Source of the DNA: a virus
Taxonomy: Duplodnaviria > Caudoviricetes
Direction: 5' to 3' (one strand)
IMG/VR virus record: IMGVR_UViG_3300039156_000048
Location: 37,756 to 101,755 of that record
Length of the DNA stretch: 64,000 bases
Made by a program: the position numbers and the translations under genes
Part shown: piece by piece, positions 47,059 through 63,998 of the stretch
Layout: the number at the start of each line of letters is the position of its first letter
Position numbering within the stretch: the stretch's first letter is position 1
Notes under the pieces: model-generated
The model's input: the letters and a program-made list of their open reading frames with translations, nothing else
The model's database searches: none
What the model was told of the DNA's origin: nothing

Positions 47059-47565
47059 TCAACACAGGAAGACCTCCTCTCCAGACCCCAGCACCTTAAG
47101 TAAGGCAGAGCATACGAATTCAAAATTCTGCTCCAAAATCTCCTCTGTTTCGTCTTGGGCGGAACGAAGAGCCGCCTTGATTTCATCCATGGTGGCGGTC
47201 ACGGGGAGTTTTCGGTAAGCATCTGCTTCATTTGAAAACTCAGAGGATTCTTCCATAATCTTCAGCACACCCTCAATAACGTCATCCAAGAGTGAGCCAT
47301 CTAACTGTAAGTGGAAGAAGGCGTCTTCGACTAAGGCATCATCTTCGTCTATGTATTGATAAACCAGGCATTCGATTTCACCGTTTCTCCTTGTGATTGA
47401 GCATGATAGAGGTTCTTTCAGGGACGATCCATAGGCAGTGAAATCCTCCTCCCCTGCCAATGCTTCTGCCAGTATAGATTCCGACTCTTTGTAGAAATCA
47501 CTCACTCTGTACTTAGAGCAACTATCACCACCTATATTGAGATCAATGTCTTTCACAATACACAT
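47059..47565 (-). CDS. Hypothetical protein, FxC-tailed (ends EVFLC)
   Basis: GAG GTC TTC CTG TGT TGA. Confidence 0.7.
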   Translation of the reverse strand: MCIVKDIDLNIGGDSCSKYRVSDFYKESESILAEALAGEEDFTAYGSSLKEPLSCSITRRNGEIECLVYQYIDEDDALVEDAFFHLQLDGSLLDDVIEGVLKIMEESSEFSNEADAYRKLPVTATMDEIKAALRSAQDETEEILEQNFEFVCSALLKVLGSGEEVFLC

Positions 47566-48359
47566 CCTTACTCCAGGAACGCAAGACTAAGCAACCGTTC
47601 CTGATCCACCGTGACAAAGACCTTTTCGGAAAGGTATTCTTCAATATCGCTATAGTCCTCGTCATCTATCTCATATCCTAAATAACTAAGATGATTTGAT
47701 AAGTCTTCCGCCAGATTGTCAAAGTACTCCCCACTCACCGAATCTTCCCAATTCTCAATCAGTCTTTGGATTTTATCCATGAGAGAACCAAGACTTCTGC
47801 ATTGACTTCGCAATGTACCTATCACACCCTCCCATGTATAAAAGTGGTATTGAGGCTTTATTAAGGTTTCAAAATCCCCCTCTTTGTTTTTTGTCAACTC
47901 ATCACGGCGGAGCAGGTAGTTGTCGATGTGCCCTGTTATGTGTTTCCATCTTTTCTCATAATGGTGACTCTCACAGGCATCATCACACCGGGAACAACAG
48001 AGACGGTAATCACAACCCTCACAGTCCTCGTCGTCCACTGCATCAGTGAATCCCTGAACGGCAGCCATTGCCGCCTTCATCAAGGTGTCCATCAGTCCGG
48101 GGGTGAGGTCGCCATCCCCCATAACCGCAAACCCAAGACCTCCCATTTTTCCCATAGGACCAAAAGATTTCATTCCATCCATGTTATTGTTCCCCCATAT
48201 CATCTATTAATTGAGCCTTGAAATTCCAGTCCAGTCCGTCAAATTCATCATAGATTACATTTGAGATCGCCTCAGATTCTGAGTCAGCATCCGTGATAAA
48301 TTCGTCGTGCACAAGAATACATTTGACTTTGAACATTGCCATTGGACTTTTCCTCCTTT

Positions 48360-49571
48360 TTACCAGTCACAATCAGACTCTGGTCTACAATCGTCACAAC
48401 GCAGGGAATTCTCATAGAGGGGAACATCGCCGCAGTTAATGCAGAAAGGAGTAGCTCCCACACAGATCGACCTGTTGAACTCGCCGCTGTCAAACTCCTC
48501 TCTGAGTTCAGTAGTGAAAGATGTCCGGACACAATCCACGTAGTAGTAATCCGGATAGTGCAGATTGTCCCGTTGAGCAATAATGTTGGCACGGCCTTTG
48601 CTGGGTTTTGCCCACTGGTTCTCAAACCAGTAGATTGTGGACAGGATGTCGTGGACCTCCTTTCTGAACAGCCGGTACAAGGGGTCATTGCCGTTTTGCA
48701 CCGGATACATCCTTGACTGGACGAAGATTTTCCCGCTTGGATGAATCATGAACATCTGCCGCTGGAACTTCTCCCTCAGGCACAGTTTTGTCATGTCACC
48801 GGGAAGGGAGTCAACCGTGTAGGCAACCACAGAGGGACCATCCACCAGATAGCTGAAAGTACCAGAGGCATACTGGCCTTCTGGTTCCCCATCATCATTT
48901 CCGCTGATGCTGTGGCAGCTTGACCAGGTGTTCCCATTGGACATGAGCGCATAGTCAGCAGGGTTCAGGGACAAGACAAAGGGGTGCTCCATGGTGTAGG
49001 GACTGATGGCGTTGGTATAGTCATTGAAGGGGCGGATGAGGTCAGATCGCTTGTTCAGGTCAATCCCGATGGCCTCGAGGTTCTTCAGGACAAGCCGTGA
49101 GGATTTCATTCCAACGGAAGGCTTGATGAACAAATCGGGGATGTAGTTCACGCCCCGGTCAATCCCTCTCTGGGTAATATTCTTTTCATTGAGAAGGGTA
49201 TTGCTCAGTTCCGTCAAAGCGGCCAGCATTTTTCTCGATTTGTTGTTTTCGTCTGTTGCCGGGAGGGTATCCATTTCCTCATACAACAGGTGAATCATTT
49301 CCTTGAGGTTGGTCACCGCAGCCCTCGTATCGGTGGTGCGGGTCTCGATAATGCTTGAGACAATCGCGAGAGCGTCGGGGTTCCATCCGGGATGCTGGCT
49401 GAACGCATCAAGGAGACCCCTTTTATTTTTCTCCCACTTGGTTACGTTGGCACGGACCCCATCCATTGAAAAATCAAGGCTGCTGTATTGCAACGCAGAC
49501 TTGAGAGCATTAAGGGCAGTTTCATACTGCATATCTGAAACAGACTCTAATTTTTCCGCAACTAAAGACAT
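48360..49571 (-). CDS. Hypothetical protein, paralog of 56433-58274
   Basis: LS.NPADY.LMS.GN.W.SCH, SR.YP and LHYPDY shared with the paralog. Confidence 0.7.
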   Translation of the reverse strand: MSLVAEKLESVSDMQYETALNALKSALQYSSLDFSMDGVRANVTKWEKNKRGLLDAFSQHPGWNPDALAIVSSIIETRTTDTRAAVTNLKEMIHLLYEEMDTLPATDENNKSRKMLAALTELSNTLLNEKNITQRGIDRGVNYIPDLFIKPSVGMKSSRLVLKNLEAIGIDLNKRSDLIRPFNDYTNAISPYTMEHPFVLSLNPADYALMSNGNTWSSCHSISGNDDGEPEGQYASGTFSYLVDGPSVVAYTVDSLPGDMTKLCLREKFQRQMFMIHPSGKIFVQSRMYPVQNGNDPLYRLFRKEVHDILSTIYWFENQWAKPSKGRANIIAQRDNLHYPDYYYVDCVRTSFTTELREEFDSGEFNRSICVGATPFCINCGDVPLYENSLRCDDCRPESDCDW

Positions 49572-49983
49572 CTCTTTGTTTCTCCTTATTTTTGTTTTTT
49601 GACTTTTATTTGTTAGAGAGGGTGAAGGGGGTTACCTTAGGATGTCAAACTTGTATCTGAGATGATTGTTGTACCATTCTTGGGGGTAAGCGTCTTCGAC
49701 GATTGTCTTATCTTCGTCATTAACATATTCCTGATAGACTCCCAAAGCCATATCCCAGATTGCTTCCATTCCGTGATCTGATGGATTCTCTCCTTCCGCA
49801 TTCAAGGTGTCTAAGATACAGTCTACCATCAGCACAATTCTGTATGCGTCATCTACCCCAATAAGATTGTCTTTGATAAACGAGAATCCCAGGGCGGCAT
49901 TTTTTACTGTCCAGCTTTTTAGCCACCACAAAGTACCATGACCATATTCTTTAGGTATATTACTCATATTTTCCTCCTTTCTT

Positions 49984-50256
49984 TCAGCAGATGAACCGTG
50001 GCCCTTTTAGGTCGTTGTATGGAATGTTCTCTCTCAAGCGGCCAAACTCAAGGTATCCAGTTCTAAGTTTGGCAATATTGGTGGGGTACATAAAACTACA
50101 ACGCATCGCCGCAAGGGAACGAGCAGTTCTATAGTGGTCCCAACGAAACCCTAAAGCCTCACATTCTTCCATTAGTTCTGAGAATTCATCAGCGTTATTA
50201 ACCATAATTGATGCGTCTTGCGAATCGAGGACTTCCTTGACTGAATTATAGACCAT
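49984..50256 (-). CDS. Hypothetical protein, FxC-tailed (ends PRFIC)
   Basis: CCA CGG TTC ATC TGC TGA. Confidence 0.65.
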   Translation of the reverse strand: MVYNSVKEVLDSQDASIMVNNADEFSELMEECEALGFRWDHYRTARSLAAMRCSFMYPTNIAKLRTGYLEFGRLRENIPYNDLKGPRFIC

Positions 50257-50466
50257 TCCTTATCTCCTTTTTTTCGTTGAACAGTTGCCGGTGCAGTTCG
50301 TTGTAGTCTATTCCTCGTGCTATAGAATTCCCCTCCTTATCAAACAGCGTGTAATAGTCTACGTCGTTGAAAATGTTGGAGACATTGATGTGCTTGACGA
50401 TTTTCGCCCCCTTGTGCTGGGTGATGAGCTTGTCTCTCCAGTGGATATCTCTTCTTGCCATCTCAA

Positions 50467-50787
50467 TCACATATTCCTGGAGAGGTCCCTGACAGTGGGC
50501 GAATCCCCGATCCACATATCACGCTCAAGGCCAAGGCCCATGAGCGGCTTCACGTTCTGCAATTCCGACAGCATTACATAACCCCATTCCGCATCTGTGA
50601 TTTTGCAGTAACCATAAAGCATCCAGTCGCCGTCTTCCTGGAGTTCCCCCTCAGTAATCAGCCAGGTGCCAAGCCCATAGGGGTTGAAATACTTGACGAT
50701 GACCCTGGCATTCATCCCCAAGCCATCCTGGGAGTGGAAGGGAAATTTCTTCAGTTCTTTTTCAATCTCTTTTGTTAGCAGTTTCAT
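50467..50787 (-). CDS. DUF2958-like protein
   Basis: LLTKE...P...QD...KYFNP.G..TW..TE...E.GY..LSEL. Confidence 0.7.
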   Translation of the reverse strand: MKLLTKEIEKELKKFPFHSQDGLGMNARVIVKYFNPYGLGTWLITEGELQEDGDWMLYGYCKITDAEWGYVMLSELQNVKPLMGLGLERDMWIGDSPTVRDLSRNM

Positions 50788-51030
50788 GTTTGTTTTCCTC
50801 CCTATAAATTATCCCTGTCTTTGATCCTGTTCACGAAGTCGTCAATGTCATAGTATTTTTCTGAAAGGCTTTCCATCCGGTTGAGCAGTAAGACGGACAA
50901 GTTACGAGAACCATCTGTCGAATAGTAGATGTAGAAACTTTGAATTGTGTTGAGATTAAAGTAACGGTCGTGCCTGTCTAATTTCCCCTTGAGCACTTCA
51001 AACATAGAATTCCTCCTTTCTTCTTGTCAT

Positions 51031-51055
51031 AAAAAAGACCCATGTCATATGGGTT
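51031..51055 (-). terminator. Putative terminator (minus strand)
   Basis: ACCCAT-gtcat-ATGGGT stem with T6 tract on the minus strand. Confidence 0.5.
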
Positions 51056-51083
51056 AGGAAACGATTATGAGACTCTATTTTTT

Positions 51084-51587
51084 TTATAAAGCATCACAAT
51101 CTTTCAGCAACTGTTCAATGTCCAAGGGAGTGTTGGTTTCCTTTACAAGCCCGTTAAGTTCTTCCGCTCCCCAAATATCCACGTTTGCACCATTCCAGTA
51201 CCATTCAGCGCCTTCGTGACACCAGTACCACAGGGTAGGTCTACTCATTGTCGCTATTAGTCTTTTGCAACCCTCATAGTCATTGTAATCAATGAACAGC
51301 CAACGCATACCAAGGTTATATAATGCTTTTAGTGACCGCTTCTGCACTTCTGTTACTCTGGGTATATGAATGATACAAGATGGCGGTCGGTGATTGACGA
51401 TTGCAACAACTTCACGGGGACTCGGTACTCGTTTGTGATCTTCAACAGCCCTAAATACATTTCCCTGTGCATCAAAATTGTAGTACTTCACTTCTTGCCA
51501 AGGTCCCTCTCTAAACCCAAATGTTTCTCCGGGCTCGGTCTCGGTGATTTTGTGCATCCGTGTTGGATAATTTCTGACTAAATCCAT
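51084..51587 (-). CDS. Hypothetical protein, paralog of the middle domain of 33692-34636
   Basis: RMH.I...EPGE.F.F...NH...II..PR.T..Q...LKAL..LG..W shared. Confidence 0.6.
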   Translation of the reverse strand: MDLVRNYPTRMHKITETEPGETFGFREGPWQEVKYYNFDAQGNVFRAVEDHKRVPSPREVVAIVNHRPPSCIIHIPRVTEVQKRSLKALYNLGMRWLFIDYNDYEGCKRLIATMSRPTLWYWCHEGAEWYWNGANVDIWGAEELNGLVKETNTPLDIEQLLKDCDAL

Positions 51588-51616
51588 TTTTCTCCTCCTT
51601 TTTTGTAACAATCCAC

Positions 51617-51639
51617 CTATCATTAGGGTACTAATGTCA
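51617..51639. promoter_or_regulatory. Palindromic site copy 5 (CTATCATTA-gggtac-TAATGTCA)
   Basis: 1 mismatch to consensus, intergenic. Confidence 0.65.
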
Positions 51640-51653
51640 GGTGAGAAAATCAG

Positions 51654-51914
51654 TCAGCAAACGAACACATCAAAATTGATTAAACAGGTACAGTTGGGGC
51701 AGATATGCTCGTCATTGACGATTGTAAACAGGTTCTCGTCTGACAGGCTGATGCCGCATTTGTCACAGCAATACAAATCAAACACACACTTCTCGCACCA
51801 ATCCTGGTTAATATCGAAGACCCAATAGACGTTTTGAAGCCCATGCCTGGAGAGACCCCCGCAGTGCTCACACTCTGAATACTCAACCCCGTCGACTATT
51901 TTTAACGGCAGCAT
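51654..51914 (-). CDS. Zinc-ribbon protein, FxC-tailed (ends DVFVC)
   Basis: Four CxxC pairs; GAT GTG TTC GTT TGC TGA; GAGG RBS. Confidence 0.7.
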   Translation of the reverse strand: MLPLKIVDGVEYSECEHCGGLSRHGLQNVYWVFDINQDWCEKCVFDLYCCDKCGISLSDENLFTIVNDEHICPNCTCLINFDVFVC

Positions 51915-52158
51915 ATATCCTCCTCTATTTTCCAGCCCAATAGATAATTCCTTCATCTATTGCAAAGAACCTTCCATCCGGGAAAATTGATTCATAGCCC
52001 AAGTAAGCACCATTCCTCATCTGCTTGCTGTCGATCACAATGTTATATTCTTTCCCATCACGCGCTCGATACCTAACCTTTTCACCCTTTTCAAAGAAAA
52101 CATCTTTCCCATTCTTCGCCCCGTGGCGTGTAACGTATAGTTTCATCAAATTCTCCTC

Positions 52159-52500
52159 CTATTCATTTAACCCCATCGCCTTATTCGCCGCTTTAATTGC
52201 TGCTTCCTTTGTGTCAAAAAGTCCCGCACTCCCATCACAAATTGCTCCAATCTGCAACATACAGTTACTGATATCGTCGCACTCAACCCAGTATCCAATT
52301 TCGTCATTGCCAAGAAGAATAAGCTTGTGTCCACAACCACACGGCATGAGCCCTGTGTTAGGATCAGGCATTCTAAAGGCTCCAAGCACACCAGCCGCTT
52401 CATCGAGTTCGCATGAGTCTTCTTCATGCCCTTGCTTTGAAAAATACCGGACAAAGCTATTGATAACCTCTACCGCTTCTGCTTTTGTCATGTTAGCCAT
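52159..52500 (-). CDS. Lar-like zinc-finger protein
   Basis: LMPCGCG...WVEC....C...EAAI.A.N.AM. Confidence 0.6.
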   Translation of the reverse strand: MANMTKAEAVEVINSFVRYFSKQGHEEDSCELDEAAGVLGAFRMPDPNTGLMPCGCGHKLILLGNDEIGYWVECDDISNCMLQIGAICDGSAGLFDTKEAAIKAANKAMGLNE

Positions 52501-52771
52501 TATCTTCCTCCTTTATTCCCCGTGAACGATTCCATTTAGCGTCTGCTTCTTCTTGTGTGTCACACCATCCTGTGTAGACACACCCCTTCACACAGGCAAC
52601 AGCCTTTTGATACCCTAAGCGGAGTCTCTCGGCTTTTGAGCCACACCCGCAAGGAGCAAGCTCGGGTTTTTTGCATTCAAATGTTATGGAATCTCCTGGT
52701 TCATTATGTAGTTCAACGGTTGCGCTGATTGTCTTAAAATCTGGATTCATACATTCGCCGTATCCATCCAT
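52493..52771 (-). CDS. Lar-like zinc-finger protein
   Basis: LAPCGCGSKA...C...C...EEA..KWNR. Confidence 0.6.
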   Translation of the reverse strand: MDGYGECMNPDFKTISATVELHNEPGDSITFECKKPELAPCGCGSKAERLRLGYQKAVACVKGCVYTGWCDTQEEADAKWNRSRGIKEEDNG

Positions 52772-53470: not shown

Positions 53471-53656
53471 CTAACAGATGAACCCATCATCTATTTTTGC
53501 TCTTTCTTCTTTTATGAATAGTCTGTACTCCATTTCAGCTTCTGTATGGGTCAGGGAACAGATACTATCTGTGGTATATCGGAACGCTTCCTCCAGTGCC
53601 TTTCCTCGGTCTGATGCCCAGAATGCTTCCCAGTCAATCTCTATGGTTGGTAGCAC
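53471..53656 (-). CDS. Hypothetical protein, FxC-tailed (ends DGFIC)
   Basis: GAT GGG TTC ATC TGT TAG. Confidence 0.65.
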   Translation of the reverse strand: MLPTIEIDWEAFWASDRGKALEEAFRYTTDSICSLTHTEAEMEYRLFIKEERAKIDDGFIC

Positions 53657-53668
53657 TATAACCCCCCT

Positions 53669-53788
53669 TTAACATATAAATTTGTCTTCCGGTTCTGTAT
53701 CGGTTTCGGTTTCCCCATATTGTATAAACTTTGCATAAAATTCTTGAAGAAGGGCGCATACATTACGAGTAGGATCATAAGTCGGCAT
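53669..53788 (-). CDS. 39-aa ORF absent from the ORF track, FxC-tailed (MPTYDPTRNVCALLQEFYAKFIQYGETETDTEPEDKFIC)
   Basis: GAAGGAG RBS, fills the gap between neighbours, GAC AAA TTT ATA TGT TAA. Confidence 0.7.
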   Translation of the reverse strand: MPTYDPTRNVCALLQEFYAKFIQYGETETDTEPEDKFIC

Positions 53789-53800
53789 ATTTTCTCCTTC

Positions 53801-54124
53801 CTAACATCTGAAAATTTCTTCATCATCATCATCGTCAAGGGCAACATAGGTACAATATCTAACAGGGTTATCATTCCCAAATCTGAAGATAAAGTATCTG
53901 TATTTGTAGTCGTAATAGAGCTCTTCAAACCCGTCAACTTCATGCAGCATTTCCATATAACCCACAGCAGAAGCGCTTTTATTTTTAATGGTGGATGTCC
54001 TTAGCCTTTCTGAATTAAAGATATTCCCTCTGTCTCCCTGTATCCAAGCATCATCAAGTACGCGGCAGATTACATCAAAGTCTTTTGAATAGCTGACCCC
54101 CTTTACATACCTTGTGTTCAACAT
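53801..54124 (-). CDS. Hypothetical protein, FxC-tailed (ends EIFRC)
   Basis: GGAGGTGA RBS before MLNTRY; GAA ATT TTC AGA TGT TAG. Confidence 0.7.
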   Translation of the reverse strand: MLNTRYVKGVSYSKDFDVICRVLDDAWIQGDRGNIFNSERLRTSTIKNKSASAVGYMEMLHEVDGFEELYYDYKYRYFIFRFGNDNPVRYCTYVALDDDDDEEIFRC

Positions 54125-54135
54125 AAACTCACCTC

Positions 54136-54447
54136 CTAACATTTGAAATGATCGCCTTCTTTGACCACCCGGAAAAGAGCATAGCACACAGGGAAATTCC
54201 CCTTTCCCAGAAGCCATTCCTTGTTTATATCCCAGCAATATTCTGTGAGGAAATGCTTCGAGACAGCCTCAAACCATGTAAGGGGAGGGGCAGAATTGAT
54301 CTTCTGTCTCCACTTGTCAGCCAGGTCGCTGATAACGCGCTGCATTCTTCCCCAGTTCCATTCGGACTCAATCAGACAATAGTCGCCGCCATTATACTTG
54401 CCGAACACCGCGACTTCCTGGAGCTTCTCTCCATCCAAATCCTTCAT
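54136..54447 (-). CDS. Hypothetical protein, FxC-tailed (ends DHFKC)
   Basis: AGGAGG RBS; GAT CAT TTC AAA TGT TAG. Confidence 0.7.
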   Translation of the reverse strand: MKDLDGEKLQEVAVFGKYNGGDYCLIESEWNWGRMQRVISDLADKWRQKINSAPPLTWFEAVSKHFLTEYCWDINKEWLLGKGNFPVCYALFRVVKEGDHFKC

Positions 54448-54462
54448 AATTCCTCCTTGTCT

Positions 54463-54780
54463 TCAGCATAGAAAATAATCTTCCCTTTTGGAGAGAGCGA
54501 ACAAGGTAAACCGTTGAAATTCTTCAACGAGAGCGCCGGTTTCGTCCGCATTGTAGTAGGTTTTACCAGGAACTATAGAATCAAAGAAAAAATCGGACAA
54601 GGGAAAATCAAGTCTGGCAGTCTCTCTACGGAACTTTTCCAGGTAAATGTTGACAACATGGTCCTGACCCCAGGTTTCCATAACCCTTTTGCATTGGGCG
54701 ATTTGATTCGGGGCCCAGTAGAAGATTTTGAGCAATTTCCACAATCTTCCTTTGCCGTCCACATAATTATTCGATGGCAT
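54463..54780 (-). CDS. Hypothetical protein, FxC-tailed (ends DYFLC)
   Basis: AGGAGG RBS before MPSNNY; GAT TAT TTT CTA TGC TGA. Confidence 0.7.
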   Translation of the reverse strand: MPSNNYVDGKGRLWKLLKIFYWAPNQIAQCKRVMETWGQDHVVNIYLEKFRRETARLDFPLSDFFFDSIVPGKTYYNADETGALVEEFQRFTLFALSKREDYFLC

Positions 54781-54791
54781 TTTCCTCCTTT

Positions 54792-55148
54792 CTAACACTT
54801 GAACGTCTCTGTGCCCTGGTCTGTTTTCTCCACGGAATAAAGGGAGTAGAATCGCCTATAGGGTGGAGTTGTGTAAGGATAATATCTCAGGAGGTATTTG
54901 TTGTCCTCGACAAATGCATCTGCCCAACACCCGCACATATCTGACGATATCTCATCGTAGGAAAGACCCTGGTTGTAGGGGTTTATCCTTTGTTCATAGA
55001 AATATTCTATTAATTCGTATACAGCCCGTTGACAGTTCCCAAGTGGATCGGAAAGAGTATCAAGGAAGTCAAGCATGGCTGTTTCAGTATATGGAATTGT
55101 TATGAGGTGTCGATAATTCCAAGACAAATGGTCGTCATATGGCGGCAT
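54792..55148 (-). CDS. Hypothetical protein, FxC-tailed (ends ETFKC)
   Basis: Start MPPYDD overlaps the PcfJ gene end; GAG ACG TTC AAG TGT TAG. Confidence 0.7.
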   Translation of the reverse strand: MPPYDDHLSWNYRHLITIPYTETAMLDFLDTLSDPLGNCQRAVYELIEYFYEQRINPYNQGLSYDEISSDMCGCWADAFVEDNKYLLRYYPYTTPPYRRFYSLYSVEKTDQGTETFKC

Positions 55149-56406
55149 CTTCCTTTTCTCCTTTCTTATCATCCTTCTGGACTTTCGCCACCCATCGCTT
55201 GATGAACGCATTCATTTTCTCGTTGGACACGGGGGAGTTACAGGCCAACCTTGCCTGTCGGAGGGTCATGTCATCAGGGAAGAGTTCAAGGGTCACAAGG
55301 GAACGGTCAGGAGCACGTTTGCTCCGCATGAACATCACAATGGAGTGCCCTGAGATGATCGACCGGATATAGGAGCCGACACAGTTACGCTGCTGGATTC
55401 CTTCATTGATTAGATCTTCAGCAGACTTTGGTGCGATGATGATGTATTCATCTTCCTCATACTCAAATCGTTTCAGTTTTTCTGCGATGGCATCAAACTT
55501 ATCATTGTCGATTTTGTTGCGGACGGAACTGAAATTCCGCTGCATTACATCATGCTCCCGTTTCAAGCTGTTGCTGTCCAGCCTGGGCTCCACCTCACAT
55601 TGTCGGCACATGGACAGGTAATCAGACAGCAAGTCAATGCCATCGTCTAAGCGAATAGCCTGATAAATATCAAGGCGGTCAAGGTAGGACAGGAGTGTTG
55701 GCAGGGTATAGTGGCCGGTGTTCAGGATGCTCTTTACTTTGCGGAGGATGATTCCCCATGAACTGTATTGAACATCCCGCATTGAAATCAACGCATCAAA
55801 GTTCTCCTTTGTATTGGCATACTTCCCAGCCGTGATACGAAACTCATTCCATGCCGAAATCGAGTCAATGTTTCTTATAAACTCAGAAGACAGGATATAA
55901 GGAGGAAGCCCTGTAATTTCCCTTAAGGATTTTCCTTTCTTAAAATTCCGCTTTAGTAACTCAAACACATTGTCCGGGCTTCTGTACCCCACAACCATCG
56001 AGTGAAAAACCCGCACAATCCCGGCTTTAACCACCTGTTCTATCCCGGGAACAAGGCTATATAGTTTATAATATCGAACGCTTGCAATTTTATCGGTATT
56101 CAAGTTACCATAAAAGTACCTTCGATGGGCGTTGGTTTCCCCAACGTTTCTTTTATATTCTTCAAGTCCGGAATAGGGGTACTTCTTGGCAAGCTCCTCC
56201 AAGAAAAAATCAACAGCCTCGATTGATATGGGGGATCCCTCACGACCATAGCCCGTGTTTTGATGGATATCGGTGGGTTTCTTCGCATCTTCAAACATTT
56301 TTCTCAATCTTTGGAGCTGTCCAATAATCTCCCGTTCACGGGTACCAATTCTGGGGTCTCCCTTATAGTATGGGGAAAGATTGCCATTCATGACCAGTTC
56401 ACTCAT
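55135..56406 (-). CDS. PcfJ-domain protein
   Basis: DYL.M...P...LK.EHD; DL..EG..Q.NCVGSY; F.R....P..S.VT.E. Confidence 0.8.
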   Translation of the reverse strand: MSELVMNGNLSPYYKGDPRIGTREREIIGQLQRLRKMFEDAKKPTDIHQNTGYGREGSPISIEAVDFFLEELAKKYPYSGLEEYKRNVGETNAHRRYFYGNLNTDKIASVRYYKLYSLVPGIEQVVKAGIVRVFHSMVVGYRSPDNVFELLKRNFKKGKSLREITGLPPYILSSEFIRNIDSISAWNEFRITAGKYANTKENFDALISMRDVQYSSWGIILRKVKSILNTGHYTLPTLLSYLDRLDIYQAIRLDDGIDLLSDYLSMCRQCEVEPRLDSNSLKREHDVMQRNFSSVRNKIDNDKFDAIAEKLKRFEYEEDEYIIIAPKSAEDLINEGIQQRNCVGSYIRSIISGHSIVMFMRSKRAPDRSLVTLELFPDDMTLRQARLACNSPVSNEKMNAFIKRWVAKVQKDDKKGEKEDAAI

Positions 56407-56432: not shown

Positions 56433-58274
56433 TCAAGCTATTACTGGTTCTTGTACAGGTTCCTCGCTAACAGGCTCCTCTTCTTCTTCTGCTGCCAAGC
56501 GTTCCGCTTCCGCTTCCTCATAGCACCTTGGGCACATCCCGTCATACCTCTCCATTTCAGAGTAGGGCCTGACCTCTCCGCACTCACTGCATGTATAGAT
56601 ACAATCGTTGCAGTAGAACTCACCATCAATCTCGGTCACATCATCGACGGAGACATCCTCATCACAGCCATGGCAGCAGGTAAAGAGCTCGTTGTAGCAG
56701 TCCTCACAATACCAGTCACCGTTATTCTCATTCTCCATCATATTATCTATATGATAGTCTTCTTCACAGTGACTGCACATGGTAAACCTATTATCGTAAC
56801 AGTCATCGCAATACCACTCATCATCAGGCCCCATCCGGCCATTATCATCCTCTGTACAAACATAGATGTTGCAGCCGTAGCACTGCCTATAGTAACGGTC
56901 ATAGCAGTGGTCACAGACCCAGGCTTCCCCATTTGTCGTGTCTATGTGGTGGGAATCATCCCGTGCATAGAAACCCTGGCAGTACTCGCACTCTACATCT
57001 TCTTCTTCATCATCCTCGGGTTGATCTTCCCGCCTGTTCCCCTTGCACCACTCACAGGAGAGACCGTCCGAAGTTTGAATTGTATGGTTTCCGCATTTGA
57101 TACAGAAGGGCTTCTTCCCCGCAGTAAAGTGGAGGGAACCGGCATAACCCTCACGAAAACCAGCGGAGTCGCCGGTGCTGCTGAAGCGGTCATAGTCCGG
57201 ATAATGCAGGTCATCTTCCTGTACGACATAGGCCGAGGCCGTTCTCCACCCGTAACCCAATGATTCCGTCACTTCTCCCTTGAACACATCTGTCAGCAAA
57301 GTTTCTGTTGTTTCTTTGAACATCTTCCGGTAGACTTCGTTTTCCGCATAAGGGTAGATCCTGGAAGCAAAGTAGGAGAGCTCATTGTTGTTGATGAAGA
57401 CAACCCGCCTTGCGATCTTGGGCTTGAGGGTAATCTCTTCGTCTGTTGTCTTTTCCGGAACGACGAAGCTGATGGTGGTCATCTTGTCCACCATGTAGGA
57501 GAGACATCCCGCCTTGTAACAGCCCCCATGAGTCCCATCGCTTCTGGAGATATGCGGGGCGATGATATGACAGCTTGTCCATGAATTCCCGTAGGACATC
57601 AGCAGGTAATCCGCAGGATTCACAGAAAGAAGGAAGCGATAGTTCCGCTTCTGGAGTGCCAGCGACTCTGTCCATTCCGTATACCGCCGTTCAATATCAC
57701 CCAGGGCCATGATCGTCGGGCTGAAGCTTTCAATCAGCTTCTTAAACAAGCGGCTGTATTTCATACCTTTTTGGACTCTGGTATATCCAAGAGGTTCCTT
57801 TATCAAGGCCAACTCCTCTTCGGATTCGGCGGTCTCATTTTGGAACAGTGGCTTTGGATAGTCTAAAGATAAGGTTCCATAGCTTGATTTCTTGAGCAAG
57901 TCAATGACGGTGTTCAGGTCAACCTGGTCTCCCCCCTCAGAAAAGTAGCCAATTGTGTCCAGCAGGGTCTGATACGCCGACATCCTTTCGCCTTCTGACT
58001 TCATGTAGGAATAATCCACCGGGATTGACAGGCGCAGCATTTCCTCATCCCAGTATTTGGATTTCCGCAAGGACTGGATGAGAGAATATTTATTCTCTAC
58101 CCACAGGTGTGCATTTGCTTTGACTCCTTCGTCTGCCTCGATCCCAGTAAACTCAAAAACCTCGTTCATGAATTTGACCGCTTTATCTTCCAGTTCCAGG
58201 ATATCCTTCTCCCTTGTCTTCTCCCTTGTCTTCTCCACCTGTTCCGGTACGATTTCTTCAACCAATTCAATCAT
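56433..58274 (-). CDS. Large hypothetical protein with C-terminal tandem zinc ribbons
   Basis: N-domain paralogous to 48360-49571; about 12 CxxC motifs in the acidic C-terminal region. Confidence 0.75.
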   Translation of the reverse strand: MIELVEEIVPEQVEKTREKTREKDILELEDKAVKFMNEVFEFTGIEADEGVKANAHLWVENKYSLIQSLRKSKYWDEEMLRLSIPVDYSYMKSEGERMSAYQTLLDTIGYFSEGGDQVDLNTVIDLLKKSSYGTLSLDYPKPLFQNETAESEEELALIKEPLGYTRVQKGMKYSRLFKKLIESFSPTIMALGDIERRYTEWTESLALQKRNYRFLLSVNPADYLLMSYGNSWTSCHIIAPHISRSDGTHGGCYKAGCLSYMVDKMTTISFVVPEKTTDEEITLKPKIARRVVFINNNELSYFASRIYPYAENEVYRKMFKETTETLLTDVFKGEVTESLGYGWRTASAYVVQEDDLHYPDYDRFSSTGDSAGFREGYAGSLHFTAGKKPFCIKCGNHTIQTSDGLSCEWCKGNRREDQPEDDEEEDVECEYCQGFYARDDSHHIDTTNGEAWVCDHCYDRYYRQCYGCNIYVCTEDDNGRMGPDDEWYCDDCYDNRFTMCSHCEEDYHIDNMMENENNGDWYCEDCYNELFTCCHGCDEDVSVDDVTEIDGEFYCNDCIYTCSECGEVRPYSEMERYDGMCPRCYEEAEAERLAAEEEEEPVSEEPVQEPVIA

Positions 58275-58298
58275 TTTGTTATCTCCTTTTGTTATTTG

Positions 58299-59435
58299 TT
58301 ATAACCTGATGGGGTATGCCCAATAGTCTTCCAGAACTTCCCGTACTGCGCCTGCCACATCTTCGACAACAATGTCTCCGACCCAGTAGCTTGTGAGTTT
58401 GTAGATCAGGAGACGGCATTCCTGCATCATGTAGTCCTCGTCCAATTCCAGTTCGTCGAATTGCTCTTCCTCTTCATCTTCAAAGGGAACCTCATCTACT
58501 GGCCTGGGTTTCTGAACCGGTGCTGTCGTAGCTGGCGGAACTGCCCCAGTTGTCAGCTTGGGAACCGTTCCGCTTGTCGGAAGCGTCGTCGCCGGGGCGG
58601 GAGCCCCTTTCATGAAGTTCTTCCCGCCGTTCCAGTATTCATCATCATCATAGTCATCATATTTCTCCCACCAGCGGGAGCCGGCATACTTGCTCTTGTA
58701 GGTATAGATGACCGCATCATAAGCGTAGGCGCTGTTGCTGCGCTCATCCGTAACAAGTCTGCCAATGGCGTCGACAGTTTTCTTCATATCTGAAACCCGG
58801 ACATACTCGCTGTTGGTATGCGGCCTGAAGTACCCGCTGGATAGATTGACCGCCGCCCTGTCCAGATAGGGAGCGATGATGCTGATATCAGAGAAGGTTC
58901 CGAAGGTTTCCTTATAGCCCGTGGCTTCTGTCACCAGTTCCGCGAATGATACATTCCCACAGTCATAGAACACCGCGTCATTGTCTCCCTGTCTATCTGC
59001 TTCGATAATGAAGTTGACTTTTGGCATGATTTTTGATCGGGTAAAAGCAGTCGCACCACCACCGCCTGTTTCCTCATCATGGGTAAAGAGGATGTGGCAG
59101 TCATGGGTTTTGAGCACCTGCATATTGATCCATACCCCAGCCCTGTCATCTCCGCCGATGCCTTGGGGGGCCATCATAAATTCCCCATCCCTTGACTTGC
59201 AGACAGTCGGCAGGTCCTTGTGAACTGTGTCAAGGTGGCACACCAGCAAAACCGGAAGAGTGCCAGGAACATACAGGAACTCATCTGTGCTGATGACCTT
59301 TTTGCCGTTGAGAATGAATACCTTCTTCAGATAGTCGTGCAGATCGTTCTGTGCGAGCTCAAAGATGAGGTCAATGTTGGCTTCATAATTCCCCGTTGTT
59401 GATTGTGCCTGCTTTTGTGTTTTGTTCTTACTCAT
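58299..59435 (-). CDS. M28/M20-like zinc exopeptidase
   Basis: HLDTVH, GGDDRAG, DEE.G..G, GTFSDI, NLS.GY..PHT..E. Confidence 0.8.
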   Translation of the reverse strand: MSKNKTQKQAQSTTGNYEANIDLIFELAQNDLHDYLKKVFILNGKKVISTDEFLYVPGTLPVLLVCHLDTVHKDLPTVCKSRDGEFMMAPQGIGGDDRAGVWINMQVLKTHDCHILFTHDEETGGGGATAFTRSKIMPKVNFIIEADRQGDNDAVFYDCGNVSFAELVTEATGYKETFGTFSDISIIAPYLDRAAVNLSSGYFRPHTNSEYVRVSDMKKTVDAIGRLVTDERSNSAYAYDAVIYTYKSKYAGSRWWEKYDDYDDDEYWNGGKNFMKGAPAPATTLPTSGTVPKLTTGAVPPATTAPVQKPRPVDEVPFEDEEEEQFDELELDEDYMMQECRLLIYKLTSYWVGDIVVEDVAGAVREVLEDYWAYPIRL

Positions 59436-59444
59436 ATCTTCTCC

Positions 59445-59780
59445 TTATGCTCCCTGTGCCAGTTGTACTTGTTGTTCCGCGATTCGAGCTGCCTGTTCCT
59501 GTTCCTGTTTTTCCTGATCTTCCTTGAGTGAAATTTCTCTTACCTCCAGCATCTTTTTGTTAAACCGGTTGTAATCAACCCCTGGTTGGATGAAGTGCTT
59601 CTGGGCGTAGCCGTCAATCTTTTTCAAGACCAGCCACAGGTAAGGCATCTTTTTTCCTTTGTACTCTTTGATCTTTCGCTTGACGAAAGGCAGGTTCCCG
59701 TAGTCTTCGGAGAACATGACCATCTCAATGGCTTCGTTGAGCCCCAGTTCCGGAATCAGTTCAGCAATTGGTTTCCCCAT
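59445..59780 (-). CDS. Hypothetical protein
   Basis: AGGAG RBS before MGKPIAEL; track start at 60110 is doubtful. Confidence 0.55.
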   Translation of the reverse strand: MGKPIAELIPELGLNEAIEMVMFSEDYGNLPFVKRKIKEYKGKKMPYLWLVLKKIDGYAQKHFIQPGVDYNRFNKKMLEVREISLKEDQEKQEQEQAARIAEQQVQLAQGA

Positions 59781-60199
59781 TTTGTTTTCTCCTTTTGTTA
59801 AATTTGTTTGTGGGTCAAAGATTGTCGGGGAGGGACAGTAGAGGTCGTCGTCGTTGTAGAGGTAGTAGGTGAAACTCCTGGGCCATAACCCTGAGACTCT
59901 GGACGGAATCAAGGGATCATATTCCTGATTGAATAAGGCACGTTCATGATTTATCGTCCAAGTAACGCTGCCATTGTGCGAAATCCTGAATTCATTGGTT
60001 GAAAAAGATATCCCGTCAGGAGTAAAAGAAATTCTAGTACAATCTATTGAAGAGGACGTGTCGATTCTCAGTTCAGCAGGGTTGATTGGTTGCGATATGA
60101 ATGGCGGCATCAGGAGTCATCAAAGGCATTTTGGATCAAAGCACAGCAAAGCATAGCCTTCTCCTTCTGAATTATTAGGTTTTATCAGGTTATTTTAGA

Positions 60200-60478
60200 T
60201 CAGCATTGAAAGGTGTTTTCTGGATTTCCTCTGTAGATATAGACGGGAAGTTCCTTATAGAACATTGGTGGATCCGGGAATGGGTCTGCTGAACGCTTGA
60301 CTCGAGTATCCCAGTCTACAAGCACCATAATATGGGCCATATCCGTTGAAACCGGATACTGATAATTCTTATCGTATGGCTTGAGAAGGTCGCTGAATTC
60401 CATCATGACCTTTTCATCGGGAACCCAGACATTGATTTTTCTGTCGAGGAATTGTTGAATCATTTCATCTTCTGTCAT
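60200..60478 (-). CDS. Hypothetical protein, FxC-tailed (ends NTFQC); paralog of 60490-60831
   Basis: AGGAG RBS before MTEDEM; shared MIQ.FLD.KIN.W.P and LPVYIY.G. Confidence 0.7.
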   Translation of the reverse strand: MTEDEMIQQFLDRKINVWVPDEKVMMEFSDLLKPYDKNYQYPVSTDMAHIMVLVDWDTRVKRSADPFPDPPMFYKELPVYIYRGNPENTFQC

Positions 60479-60489
60479 TTTTTCTCCTT

Positions 60490-60831
60490 TCAGCATTGGA
60501 ATATGTCTTCTCGTTTCCCCATATAGATATAAACTGGAAGACCGCTGTAAGATTTCAGTGGGGGGAAGAGTTCCTCTGAACATTTGATGTAGTCACTATA
60601 TTTGTTATAGAGGAGAATGTTGGATTTTCTGCCTTTGACTTGAGCTTCGTATCCAGGAACGCCAAAACCCCTTCCGTAGGGAAGGCAGAATTTGTCGATC
60701 AGGAGCATAACCTGTTCATTGGGTGTCCAGATGTTGATTTTCTTGTCAAGGAAAAGCTGGATCATCGTTTCCGTATCGGGAATGTCATATGGAACCGAGC
60801 GGTTGTGCAGTTCAATCTCTAAGAGTGTCAT
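60490..60831 (-). CDS. Hypothetical protein, FxC-tailed (ends DIFQC)
   Basis: GGAGG RBS; GAC ATA TTC CAA TGC TGA. Confidence 0.7.
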   Translation of the reverse strand: MTLLEIELHNRSVPYDIPDTETMIQLFLDKKINIWTPNEQVMLLIDKFCLPYGRGFGVPGYEAQVKGRKSNILLYNKYSDYIKCSEELFPPLKSYSGLPVYIYMGKREDIFQC

Positions 60832-60841
60832 GGTAACCTCC

Positions 60842-61162
60842 TTATCTTATGAATGTGGGAGCTTCTTCAAGTGGTTGCCCCCATTTGAGCAGGGCAATCT
60901 TAACAAAAGCATAATAACCGGCAACTTTATTGTCCCTTTGTTGGATAAGTGCTTCTTCAAATGTTGGATAAACGCCAAGCACATTATAATTGGCACAATC
61001 ATCTCCTTCGGTGTCAAAATTATAAGCAATAAAAATATCAAAGTCGCTTGTATCCGCTTCGATGATTATGTTCAAATCATCATCTGTGAATTTGAAGGAG
61101 AACTCCTTGCCATTTTTGCTTGAAAAACAGTCTGTACTATGCTTCCGCCGATAAATCTTCAT
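60842..61162 (-). CDS. Hypothetical protein, paralog of 61182-61499 (ends PTFIR)
   Basis: Shared MKIY...DFD.F...VLG.Y.TFEEA...IALL.WGQ.L. Confidence 0.7.
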   Translation of the reverse strand: MKIYRRKHSTDCFSSKNGKEFSFKFTDDDLNIIIEADTSDFDIFIAYNFDTEGDDCANYNVLGVYPTFEEALIQQRDNKVAGYYAFVKIALLKWGQPLEEAPTFIR

Positions 61163-61181
61163 AAATTCTCCTTTATTTGCC

Positions 61182-61499
61182 TTATCTTACAAACTGGGGG
61201 CACCCTGCAAGTTCCTGCCCCCAGTTGAGTAGGGCGATTCTTGCAAGGAAATATTCGTCACGGATACTGAGATTTTCATTCTCCTGTCGGGCATAAGCTT
61301 CCTCAAATGTCGTATAGATACCCAACACCTTGATTGGTTCTCCCACAAATTCTTCATAACGACCAAAAACAAGAAAGACATCAAAATCATCCGTATTTAT
61401 CTCACTTATATTGTTATGATAGTCAGGGTGAAAGGTTATCCATTCGTCTTCTTTGTTGGAATAATAATCATCACGTTCATTTATACTATAAATCTTCAT
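61182..61499 (-). CDS. Hypothetical protein, paralog of 60842-61162 (ends PQFVR)
   Basis: Tandem duplication with near-identical RBS region (TAAATCTTCATAAATTCTCCTTTATTT). Confidence 0.7.
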   Translation of the reverse strand: MKIYSINERDDYYSNKEDEWITFHPDYHNNISEINTDDFDVFLVFGRYEEFVGEPIKVLGIYTTFEEAYARQENENLSIRDEYFLARIALLNWGQELAGCPQFVR

Positions 61500-61517
61500 A
61501 AATTCTCCTTTATTTAC

Positions 61518-61540
61518 CTAACATTATGTCACTAATGTCA
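61518..61540. promoter_or_regulatory. Palindromic site copy 6 (CTAACATTA-tgtcac-TAATGTCA)
   Basis: Exact consensus, intergenic. Confidence 0.7.
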
Positions 61541-61546
61541 TGTTCG

Positions 61547-61864
61547 TCAGCAACGGAAGAAGAAGGTTTCAATTGGACCCGGAGTCAATTTCTTGAAGGT
61601 ATAAAGCGGCCTATTATCGCTTCCGTCTGTGATATCGCAAGTGTCTTCATCCACCCAGGTCATCCTAAGCGGCGGTGGCATCCACATTCTCCCCCGGATG
61701 ATGTTCTCAAACCTTAATTCAAGAGACGCAAGGGAAGCTATCGCTTCTATCATGCAAACAACCCTTCCGGGAAGAAGCTGGGTCTTTATTCTTTCCCAAT
61801 TTCCGTCGTCATTCCGTCCAGGCTGGATTGCGTACAGGTCGAACACAAGACTATCGTCGAACAC
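61547..61864 (-). CDS. Hypothetical protein, FxC-tailed (ends FFFRC)
   Basis: GGAGG RBS; TTC TTC TTC CGT TGC TGA. Confidence 0.65.
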   Translation of the reverse strand: MFDDSLVFDLYAIQPGRNDDGNWERIKTQLLPGRVVCMIEAIASLASLELRFENIIRGRMWMPPPLRMTWVDEDTCDITDGSDNRPLYTFKKLTPGPIETFFFRC

Positions 61865-61882
61865 TTAGATTCGCCTCCTTTT

Positions 61883-62218
61883 TTACGACAGTGCTTTCTC
61901 TATTGCTAAGATAATATCTTCACAAATCTCTTTAACGGGCCTCCCTGCGAGGACATCAGCAAATATCATCTGGGAATTATAAGGGGGTGTATTTATTTCC
62001 CATAATACCCCATCGGTATCCACCGTGATTTCACATATCGGAACTCCATTCTTTTTCTCTCGGCCACAGATTCTAACACCGTCTGTCTCATAAAATTCCT
62101 CAGAGTCAACCCACGGAAATTTTTGAGAAAGGGATAGAAATTCACAGATTGCTTCCGCACAATCTCTCCAGTTTGCAATAGCAATATAAGTTTCAACCTT
62201 TATATCTTCTGTTTTCAT
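61883..62218 (-). CDS. Hypothetical protein
   Basis: AGGAG RBS, in operon. Confidence 0.55.
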   Translation of the reverse strand: MKTEDIKVETYIAIANWRDCAEAICEFLSLSQKFPWVDSEEFYETDGVRICGREKKNGVPICEITVDTDGVLWEINTPPYNSQMIFADVLAGRPVKEICEDIILAIEKALS

Positions 62219-62227
62219 ACTTCTCCT

Positions 62228-63439
62228 TTAGTCCCCAGACGCTTTGAAGTTGTAGATCGGGGTAAGGCGCTCGATCATGGTCGCCGTGTCCTTGATAGCG
62301 TCCATGATGCTCTCCATAGGCTTGTAGGCCATCGGCGCTTCATCAAGAGTCTCCGCGTTGACAGTTGTCGAATACACATCTTTCATTGTTTCTTTGAATT
62401 CCTCAACGGATAGGCCGCGTCTTGCCTGACCTCTGGACATCAACCGGCCTGCCCCGTGAGGAGCCGACTGGTTCCAGTCATCATTCCCCTTGCCGACACA
62501 CAGCAAGGATCCGTCCCGCATGTTCATGGGAATAAGGATGCTCTCACCATCCTTGGCGGAGATTGCGCCTTTCCGGAGGGTCCTGTCATCATCGATATAA
62601 TTGTGAACCGTGTGAAAATTGAGGTTCGGACTGTCCCAGTTCATCTTGTTCAGCAGGATGGTTGCGATCTTCTTCCGATTCATCTTCGCCCAATGTTGGG
62701 CAATCCTCATGTCATGCAGATAATTCTCCATATCCTGCCCTTCTAGGTAAGCAAGCTGATCGGGGATGGTGGGGGAGCAGGCTTTTATATTCCGAATCAT
62801 GAGAGGGATTTCACTTTGCCTGCCTTCGTCCTTCATCTGTTTTGCAAGCGCCTTGATATCAACCTGGCTTTTCTCCTTCATCCTTGAGATGGCAAGGTTC
62901 TGATAGTGGGTGGCAACCTGCACCCCCAGGTTCCGTGAACCGGTGTGGATGACCAGATACAAAGTACCCTCAGCTCCTTTGTTTATCTCGATAAAATGAT
63001 TGCCGCCGCCGAGCGTGCCAAGCGAGTTGAGGATTCGGTCTTGGTTTTTGACATATCGCCAACAATTCAGATTCAAAAGCGTTGCCGTTTGCGTGGGATA
63101 GTCGAACGGAGAGCTATGAACATTGAATCCAGCGGGGATGTTATAGTGGACAACTCCGTCAAATTCTTTCATGTCAAATTCCCCTTCATGAACCGTCAGC
63201 GGGACTGTCATCATACCGCATCCAATGTCAACACCAACTAGGTTTGGGCAGACTTTATCCCGGATCTTCATCGTTGTCCCGATGACGCAACCTGCCCCGG
63301 CATGGACGTCTGGCATAATCCGAATGTTTGCATCCTCCGCAAAGGGCTGGTTGAGTAGTTCCTTGATTTGTTCAACGGCAGTCTCTTCGACCAGTTCCGT
63401 ATAGACCTTTGCTTTTCCGTATTTACCTTCAAGAATCAT
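62228..63439 (-). CDS. rtcB: RtcB-family RNA ligase
   Basis: MPDVH.G.G..IG, GVDIGCGM, LGGGNHFIE, HTGSR, HNY, RKGA, HGAGR, DEAP.AYK. Confidence 0.95.
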   Translation of the reverse strand: MILEGKYGKAKVYTELVEETAVEQIKELLNQPFAEDANIRIMPDVHAGAGCVIGTTMKIRDKVCPNLVGVDIGCGMMTVPLTVHEGEFDMKEFDGVVHYNIPAGFNVHSSPFDYPTQTATLLNLNCWRYVKNQDRILNSLGTLGGGNHFIEINKGAEGTLYLVIHTGSRNLGVQVATHYQNLAISRMKEKSQVDIKALAKQMKDEGRQSEIPLMIRNIKACSPTIPDQLAYLEGQDMENYLHDMRIAQHWAKMNRKKIATILLNKMNWDSPNLNFHTVHNYIDDDRTLRKGAISAKDGESILIPMNMRDGSLLCVGKGNDDWNQSAPHGAGRLMSRGQARRGLSVEEFKETMKDVYSTTVNAETLDEAPMAYKPMESIMDAIKDTATMIERLTPIYNFKASGD

Positions 63440-63469
63440 AGCTGTTTGTTTTCTCCTTTTGTTATTGTG

Positions 63470-63736
63470 TCAGCACTGGAACACTTCGCCAGGTTTGTCC
63501 GCCAGCAGGATCAGTGAGTCCTCATGCCAGTTGAAGGGAATGTCTTTCAACCGATGATAAAACTTTGTGTTATTCCAATTCCGCTGTACAGAATCAGGTA
63601 TCGGGTCAACACGCGTGACGGTTGCTTCCATCCCAGCATAGTCGAGCATGGAGTCAACGATATTTGTACACTGCCATAATTCCGCATGACTCCGTATGCG
63701 GACAACATCACCCACCCGAAGTTCACGCTGTTGCAT
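63470..63736 (-). CDS. KOW/SH3-like small protein, FxC-tailed (ends EVFQC)
   Basis: L.VGD.V.I...M..YAG....V; GAA GTG TTC CAG TGC TGA. Confidence 0.7.
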   Translation of the reverse strand: MQQRELRVGDVVRIRSHAELWQCTNIVDSMLDYAGMEATVTRVDPIPDSVQRNWNNTKFYHRLKDIPFNWHEDSLILLADKPGEVFQC

Positions 63737-63755
63737 TTATCAACACCCCCCTTTT

Positions 63756-63998
63756 TTAACACTTGAACACATCAGTAGGGTCAAATACCAACCCGTCTTC
63801 GTACCAATAATAGCAACCATTGTCAATATCGAGTTTGACGGAGAAACTTATACGCTTCCCAGTCCATCTTGTGCTATCCCTTGACAGAACACTCACAACT
63901 CTCCCTTGTCTCCCCGCGTATTTGACCATATCTTCGTCAATATCATAGCATCCTTCCAAATCATTCTTGATTTGAATAATATCTCCAACTTTCAACAT
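63756..63998 (-). CDS. KOW/SH3-like small protein, FxC-tailed (ends DVFKC); paralog of 63470-63736
   Basis: LKVGD..I...M.KYAG..G.V...W.ED.L; GAT GTG TTC AAG TGT TAA. Confidence 0.7.
   Translation of the reverse strand: MLKVGDIIQIKNDLEGCYDIDEDMVKYAGRQGRVVSVLSRDSTRWTGKRISFSVKLDIDNGCYYWYEDGLVFDPTDVFKC

Follow-up and report, generated by a model that had tools for sequence, protein, structure and literature searches.

The window analysed here is a 64,000-nucleotide (nt) stretch of the virus record IMGVR_UViG_3300039156_000048 (Duplodnaviria; Caudoviricetes), corresponding to C1:37756-101755 of a record of 101,755 bp; coordinates are window positions unless prefixed C1. All open reading frames (ORFs) of at least 30 amino acids (aa) in the window were listed, and a simple gene call on the whole record gave 143 genes. 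Between positions 47059 and 63998, 14 minus-strand ORFs end in F-x-C directly before the stop codon, and this shared C-terminal sequence, the FxC tail, is the subject of the present report (Table 1). The positions of the stops and the last five residues are as given in an initial annotation made from the sequence alone, and so are the codons (Cys as TGC in seven and TGT in seven; stops TGA in eight, TAG in four and TAA in two), the D or E at position -5 in 11 of the 14, and the consecutive order of the six genes with stops 53471 to 54792. The 39-aa ORF at 53669-53788 has an ATG start and a good Shine-Dalgarno sequence. Several of the true starts lie downstream of the start of the longest ORF, e.g., in 53801-54124 and 54792-55148.

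Three further FxC genes are found on the minus strand at the other end of the contig (C1:227-481, 493-738 and 750-992), with the tails AVFRC, DEFMC and GEFKC, which brings the total to 17. The record is classed as linear, has no terminal repeat and is 64% complete by CheckV; contigs of relatives are 101.5 and 110.2 kb. Joining of the two contig ends is not established, and 17 FxC genes is thus a minimum. No FxC gene had been reported to the left of 47 kb. Four ORFs there do end in FxC (10096, 23072, 27080 and 45680); three of the four were not called as genes, and 10096-10311, which was kept by the crude caller, is antisense within a plus-strand gene block and looks spurious.

Table 1. Genes whose products carry the FxC tail, followed by other genes of the same array.
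Feature	Position	Strand	Description
FxC gene 1	47059..47565	-	168 aa; ends GSGEEVFLC; stop TGA; no Pfam or PHROG family
FxC gene 2	49984..50256	-	90 aa; ends LKGPRFIC; stop TGA
FxC gene 3	51654..51914	-	86 aa (100 aa from upstream ATG at 51956); Cys-rich, CxxC repeats; ends NFDVFVC; stop TGA
FxC gene 4	53471..53656	-	61 aa; GTG start; ends KIDDGFIC; stop TAG
FxC gene 5	53669..53788	-	39-aa mini-protein: predicted helix, acidic linker and tail; ends EPEDKFIC; stop TAA
FxC gene 6	53801..54124	-	107 aa; poly-Asp linker; ends DDDDDEEIFRC; stop TAG
FxC gene 7	54136..54447	-	103 aa; ends KEGDHFKC; stop TAG
FxC gene 8	54463..54780	-	105 aa; ends KREDYFLC; stop TGA
FxC gene 9	54792..55148	-	118 aa; ends QGTETFKC; stop TAG
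FxC gene 10, family B	60200..60478	-	92 aa; ends NPENTFQC; stop TGA
FxC gene 11, family B	60490..60831	-	113 aa; ends KREDIFQC; stop TGA
FxC gene 12	61547..61864	-	105 aa; ends IETFFFRC; stop TGA
FxC gene 13, family A (SH3-like)	63470..63736	-	88 aa; ends KPGEVFQC; stop TGA
FxC gene 14, family A (SH3-like barrel)	63756..63998	-	80 aa; ends DPTDVFKC; stop TAA
Family A paralogs with tail, outside window (locus L001)	C1:227-481, 493-738, 750-992	-	
NPADY-motif paralog	48360..49571	-	403 aa; no tail
PcfJ-like protein	55135..56406	-	423 aa; no tail; PF14284, E 2e-25; landmark inside array
NPADY-motif protein	56433..58274	-	613 aa; C-terminal LIM/PHD-like Cys repeats; no tail
M20/M28-like (PepT-like) metallopeptidase	58299..59435	-	378 aa; lid domain absent; metal-ligand motifs conserved; no tail
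RtcB RNA ligase	62228..63439	-	403 aa; no tail; PF01139, E 2e-63

From the residue shares of the record (F 3.9%, C 1.6%), 0.09 genes ending in FxC are expected among the 143 called, and 17 are observed. Every credibly called Cys-ending gene of the record has F at position -3, and the lone further ORF that ends in Cys is antisense and lacks a ribosome-binding site. As an external null, 120 IMG/VR loci of other large phages with 4,189 called genes were used, and only 6 of these genes end in FxC. The enrichment pointed out in the initial annotation is therefore genuine, both against chance and against other phages, and a chance origin of the shared tail is very unlikely. Internal F-x-C is not enriched (~22 observed, ~18 expected), which indicates that the free C-terminus matters. 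Separately, the spacers at 51600-51653 and 61500-61546, each on the minus strand after an FxC stop, both hold TGACATTAGT within a palindrome-like sequence.

The bodies of the proteins, said to be largely unrelated, prove to be so. An all-against-all BLASTP comparison places the 17 proteins in 12 unrelated groups: family A with five members (stops 63470 and 63756 and the three genes at the contig start), the family B pair (stops 60200 and 60490) and ten singletons. Lengths range from 39 to 168 aa. No significant Pfam family was found for any of the 17, and no PHROG for the ten that were tested. The 54136-54447 protein matched only itself among the cluster representatives of a 5.8-billion-protein database; its homologs and those of family B are confined to this phage lineage.

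Family A permits the tail to be compared with relatives that do not have it. A profile of the family has 195 matches at E<1e-3 among 1.84 billion representative proteins, and many of these relatives are repeats within large proteins. In distant relatives the domain ends with W-x-W-x-x-x-[ML], followed by unrelated sequence without FxC. The extension D-P-x-D-x-F-x-C is limited to sequences P0002-P0009, i.e., to this phage and its close kin, and in one of these the end is QFQY, with the Cys replaced. In Enterococcus Saphexavirus phages the family A domain forms the N-terminal half of a 151-aa protein, also without FxC. This protein is encoded at 5998-6453 of locus L002 (Enterococcus phage vB_EfaS_PHB08) directly after the gene for DNA polymerase I, and the domain is conserved in about 40 records of the Saphexavirus type. 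AlphaFold2 modeling on a 48-sequence alignment of family A gives an SH3-like barrel with predicted local distance difference test (pLDDT) values above 90, and with values below 50 for the last three residues. The nearest folds in the PDB, all weak matches, are SPbeta YorP, PetP and the Mind bomb repeats. As judged from these homologs and from the model, the tail is a portable add-on that lies outside the fold, as had been supposed.

A 66-aa two-transmembrane protein (G000:C1:2-202, locus L001) is encoded between the family A FxC genes of the two contig ends. If the ends were joined, only 3 nt would separate its stop from the ATG that follows, which is that of the 63756-63998 gene.

When each of the 12 families is counted once, F is at -3 and C is at -1 in all 12, and D or E is at -5 in 10. 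Position -6 is E, D, G or T (F in one), position -4 is free, and position -2 is solely I, K, L, R, Q or V. The tail is often preceded by acidic residues or by a stretch rich in G, P and T, e.g., DDDDDEEIFRC and TETDTEPEDKFIC. In relatives, x and the linker positions change (Q/R, I/V/M, A/P, K/E), and F and C are retained; the tails of the 60490-60831 gene, for example, are DVFQC and DMFQC.

At the nucleotide level, bases of the junctions outside the F, C and stop codons have an identity of 0.34, and no word is common across families. The junctions that stand out are those of the paralog pairs and the tight junctions that share the ribosome-binding site of the next gene. Thus the conservation is at the level of the peptide and not of a DNA word, in keeping with the initial annotation. 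The Cys codon and the stop codon are linked, however: TGC is always followed by TGA, and TGT mostly by TAG or TAA (Fisher p = 4e-4). The tetranucleotide CTAG is ~five-fold under-represented in the whole record (42 observed, 216 expected), and TGC-TAG is missing because CTAG is avoided genome-wide. TAG stops sit within TAGGAGG or TAGAAAGGAGG and lengthen the Shine-Dalgarno sequence of the next gene; that of the 53471-53656 gene sits within TAGAAAGGAG, which is the Shine-Dalgarno sequence of the gene that follows. In Firmicutes, TAGGAGG-type sequences match the 3′ end of 16S rRNA. Promoter-like and terminator-like sites were found only at the level of shuffled sequence.

The array is on the same strand as, and upstream of, a replication and nucleotide module that encodes Pol III alpha, a Toprim-DnaB primase-helicase, a class II ribonucleotide reductase, an RNA ligase, a Rad52-like protein and SSB. 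Its proteins are Cys-rich (2.7% Cys vs 1.4% in the rest of the genome). Residues ~450-590 of the 613-aa NPADY protein form an array of CxxC repeats with a weak match to LIM/PHD zinc fingers (PDB phmmer, E 2.6e-4), and the FxC protein at 51654-51914 has CxxC repeats of a similar style. The ~102-kb uncultured phage looks temperate. A partial, attP-like tRNA-Thr(UGU) at 17105-17170 has an exact match in >120 GTDB genomes, mostly gut, rumen and digester Clostridia, many of them Christensenellales, and from these matches the host is probably an anaerobic member of the Clostridia. The gene at 17260-18153 adjoins the tRNA fragment and is assumed to be a putative integrase; a second tyrosine recombinase (Phage_integrase, E 1e-23) is found at 41350-42300, inside the replication module. 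Relatives come from terrestrial, manure, wastewater and bovine metagenomes in six studies, and none of the public runs listed holds RNA of the lineage.

The array differs between strains. Contigs from four runs were aligned to it, and the following are among the 40 differences listed of ~1,400. In X11 and X15 a deletion from 54142 to 54799 leaves the 54792 gene with its own body but with the tail and stop of the 54136 gene, and two FxC genes are lost; the joint is a recombination between two tails that share CTAACA[T/C]TTGAA. In X5 the 54136 and 54463 genes have bodies that were replaced or have strongly diverged, and they keep the tail, stop and junction. The gene downstream of 49984 is deleted in X5 and X11, and the 49984 gene still ends in F-I-C, now with TGT TAA. 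Two strains have a family A copy directly after the 54136 gene. Bodies that are replaced or deleted while tail and junction stay fit a model of variable heads on a constant handle. As a repeat, the tail is also a source of microhomology by which genes can be lost and gained.

The metallopeptidase, PcfJ and the two NPADY proteins of the array had been put forward as candidate readers of the tail. The peptidase belongs to a large, unnamed phage family (2,602 matches), and the NPADY proteins are paralogs in clusters that are almost entirely viral. In 118 of 120 IMG/VR loci (L075-L153, L274-L314) the peptidase and an NPADY homolog are at most 10 kb apart, and PcfJ is present in 9 of the 120. There is no excess of FxC in these 120 loci, and no other shared C-terminal pattern in 41 NPADY loci. 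The module is thus common without FxC, which argues for a conserved phage unit in its own right and not for a dedicated reader. The proposed readers are not supported, PcfJ included. NPADY with the lid-less M20/M28-like peptidase forms a conserved two-gene module of large uncultured phages that is without a Pfam name. A complex prediction with peptidase residues 1-245, two Zn and the 39-aa mini-protein gave a score of 0.05, which has no evidential weight either way. Docking to a PDZ domain had also been suggested, but the profiles PF13180 and PF17820 have no match in the phage record, with positive controls found and PF00595 not searched, and a phage-encoded PDZ reader of these two families is therefore not available. 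No N-terminal signal peptides were seen on inspection of the 17 sequences, and the suggestion of an export signal was not borne out.

Other genomes with the tail were sought in several ways. When IMG/VR was scanned for the junction TTYNNNTGTTAGRAAGGAG, 70 single matches at background level and no enriched contig came up. A megablast search of a phage collection with the array had no match, nor did a tblastn search with a 524-aa protein of the plus-strand block (genome 19-27 kb). Searches with the 613-aa protein, the family A alignments and PcfJ revealed no related loci in IMG/VR, JGI metagenomes and GTDB genomes. Since the tail was found in one lineage only, no argument from co-occurrence is possible.

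In the reading that we favor, and to which we give about an even chance, the tail serves as a portable short linear motif of the C-terminus, [ED]-[DE]-x-F-[IKLRQV]-C-COOH, and a single partner recognizes it on all of the proteins. A flexible, often acidic linker attaches it to at least 12 unrelated small accessory proteins, which are encoded in a fast-changing array just upstream of the replication module. The tail would then be a common handle, with the Phe in a hydrophobic pocket and the terminal Cys and its carboxylate held by the shared reader, and many exchangeable bodies could be routed to the same partner for hub docking, timed removal or loading. Such a reader is more likely to be a host protein or a lineage-specific phage protein than one of the conserved enzymes in the array. 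A wider proposal, made more tentatively and with somewhat less than an even chance, is that of an undescribed addressing system, in which a [DE]-x-F-x-C-COOH handle brings rapidly exchanging, small effector-like proteins to one reader (a host hub, a protease or adaptor, or the virion), as an instance of a wider phage habit of lineage-specific C-terminal tags on accessory proteins.

Several observations weigh against the motif having a shared partner. No reader was found among the phage candidates in the PDZ search or among the peptidase, NPADY and PcfJ proteins of the array, and in the scans with relatives of array genes and in the IMG/VR junction scan the tail is seen in one phage lineage only. 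Family A aside, there is no confident structural evidence for an exposed tail; the AlphaFold2 model of family B is poor, with a low-confidence mixed alpha/beta structure. The deletion by recombination between two tails (X11, X15) gives the repeated junction a consequence at the DNA level too. Finally, TAA is the stop in 3 of the 17 FxC genes vs 75 of the 128 other genes, and this is not predicted by a signal that acts purely in the mature protein.

An alternative that we consider unlikely gives the last Cys a chemical role and not that of a docking epitope. The tail would be a flexible arm whose Cys completes a metal site of a partner, carries a thiol or persulfide, or undergoes covalent capture or modification, with the Phe and the acidic residues placing it. 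The Cys is invariant and ends every tail, the family A model has a flexible tail, and the array combines a high Cys content with zinc-finger-like proteins and a metallopeptidase. The probable host is a strict anaerobe, whose cytoplasm is reducing, and a precedent exists in the HypE tail PRIC-COOH (PMC12130793), to which the tail PRFIC is similar. Against this role, the Phe at -3 is as strictly conserved as the Cys, which suits a recognition pocket, the one family A relative that ends in QFQY has no terminal Cys, and no enzyme that loads or uses the thiol could be identified.

A rather unlikely alternative is that the tail is a by-product of the way in which the array evolves, through tandem duplication and recombination at a repeated unit of tail, stop and ribosome-binding site. 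Bodies would diverge or be swapped, and the 3′ end would be kept as a junction for recombination or translational coupling that no protein reads. The six consecutive FxC genes, the tandem paralogs, the many stops that abut the next Shine-Dalgarno sequence (with the TAG stops inside it, as above), the 54142-54799 joint and the persistence of junctions in X5 while bodies differ are all as this would have it. Bases of the junctions are nevertheless unconserved across families beyond F, C and stop, and the codons for x, -4 and -5 differ. About half of the FxC genes are followed by a long spacer, with no touching Shine-Dalgarno sequence, and array genes without FxC have equally tight junctions and no tail. 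A divergence sufficient to saturate the bodies would also erase F and C if there were no selection on the peptide.

It is quite improbable that the tail acts during translation, although the stop codons keep this alternative alive. In this case F-x-C in the ribosome, together with a stop that is read by a single release factor, would modulate termination, by a pause, by an influence on coupling to the next gene or by low-level readthrough, and the selected function would be translational. The motif strictly abuts the stop codon, and TAA is avoided whether the stop touches the next Shine-Dalgarno sequence (FxC genes: TAG 6, TAA 2, TGA 1; others: TAG 4, TAA 18, TGA 3) or is followed by a spacer (FxC genes: TGA 8, TAA 1; others: TGA 42, TAA 57, TAG 4). 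In other phages, genes that end in Cys have TAA at a normal rate (21 of 36). TGTTAA and TGCTAA are not avoided genome-wide, and avoidance of these hexamers thus gives no account of the depletion, which is left unexplained by spacing, k-mers and Cys endings. The sample of stop codons is small, however, and the avoidance of CTAG accounts for part of the link between Cys codon and stop. In half of the FxC genes there is no coupling to a downstream start, a binding epitope would account better for the acidic linker and for the D or E at -5, and we know of no arrest or termination motif of the form F-x-C. Stop-codon readthrough or gene fusion as such was rejected, as the in-frame extensions past the stops are short or unrelated and give no consistent product.

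The initial annotation named, as a case that would refute it, highly diverged paralogs of a single family in which the tail is part of the fold. For the 17 proteins this is highly improbable: all are small and in one array, and several have a hydrophobic strand and a turn (G/K-x-x-D) before the terminal xFxC, but ten have no pairwise similarity in a set that falls into 12 BLASTP groups and has lengths of 39 to 168 aa, the SH3-like barrel of family A is all-beta, with tail residues of low pLDDT and with distant homologs that have no tail, family B is modeled, at low confidence, as mixed alpha/beta, and the 39-aa member is hardly more than a helix, a linker and the tail.

Small early proteins are the largest pool of functionally unassigned genes in phage genomes and the usual source of factors for host takeover and anti-defence. 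If a transplantable five-residue tail is indeed shared as a docking motif, a dozen unrelated proteins would act via one partner, and this partner could be fished with a single peptide bait, so that a single tractable experiment would cover 17 orphan genes. There would also be use, as a tool, for a minimal portable tag functional in anaerobic Firmicutes. Should C-terminal tags particular to each genome be common in phages, they would provide a new principle for the functional grouping of unannotated phage genes.

A full-text search of the literature did not reveal a description of such a tail in phages, nor any described system with this motif; the nearest are the terminal Cys of HypE, C-terminal degrons, cargo-loading peptides, PDZ ligands and the C-terminal tail of SSB. 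In HypE, the Cys of the C-terminal PRIC-COOH is a swinging carrier (PMC12130793). A flexible C-terminal tail and an invariant last Cys are common to both, and PRFIC is the closest of the FxC tails. HypE is a single enzyme family in which the Cys is a chemical carrier, whereas the other 16 tails are unlike PRIC; no Hyp-like genes are present in the Pfam annotations made of the phage.

Among C-terminal degrons are the ssrA tag with LAA-COOH, the C-motifs of ClpXP and the non-polar ends read by Tsp/Prc. They are likewise portable, terminal-only signals that place unrelated proteins under one protease, and a degron would suit a timed removal of early proteins or silence in the lysogen. None of the 17 tails matches an L-A-A-type non-polar end or a basic C-motif of the MuA type, we know of no degron with F-x-C, and no protease or adaptor has been identified for it. 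Cargo tags of HK97-fold shells, i.e., the C-terminal cargo-loading peptides of encapsulins and the capsid-targeting sequences of T4, are short tags common to unrelated proteins and read by one structure. They have other sequences, and the FxC genes lie beside replication genes and not structural genes, far from the plus-strand block that holds a 2,411-aa tail-length protein.

PDZ ligands of class II have the form hydrophobic-x-hydrophobic-COOH, and the YxF-COOH ends of outer-membrane proteins are sensed by DegS. As in these, the FxC motif is terminal-only and ends a disordered stretch, with a hydrophobic or aromatic residue two or three positions from the end and acidic residues upstream. The F two residues ahead of the end is present in 17 of 17, and a last residue Cys is non-canonical for the class. 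Most PDZ proteases of bacteria are extracytoplasmic, a further difference from the FxC proteins with their lack of evident signal peptides. A precedent for a terminal Cys among PDZ ligands is the non-canonical DDWC-COOH of the Ca_V2 channel, which is bound by the PDZ domains of Mint and RIM (bioRxiv 10.1101/2024.02.26.582151). There the aromatic residue is at -2, and in FxC it is at -3.

The phage itself encodes an example of the remaining system, as its SSB (39578-40012) ends in DDGSDLPF, a canonical acidic hub tail. The C-terminal tail of SSB is a hub motif of the form D-D-D-[IL]-P-F-COOH. It resembles the FxC tail in its flexible acidic linker, in its aromatic residue and in the need for a free carboxyl end, which binds in pockets of the partners. 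None of the 17 FxC tails has the ending [IL]-P-F, and the sole protein that ends in DLPF is SSB. The last residue of the SSB tail is Phe, whereas here it is Cys, with the Phe at -3. SSB is one carrier with many readers; in the FxC proteins many unrelated carriers have one tail.

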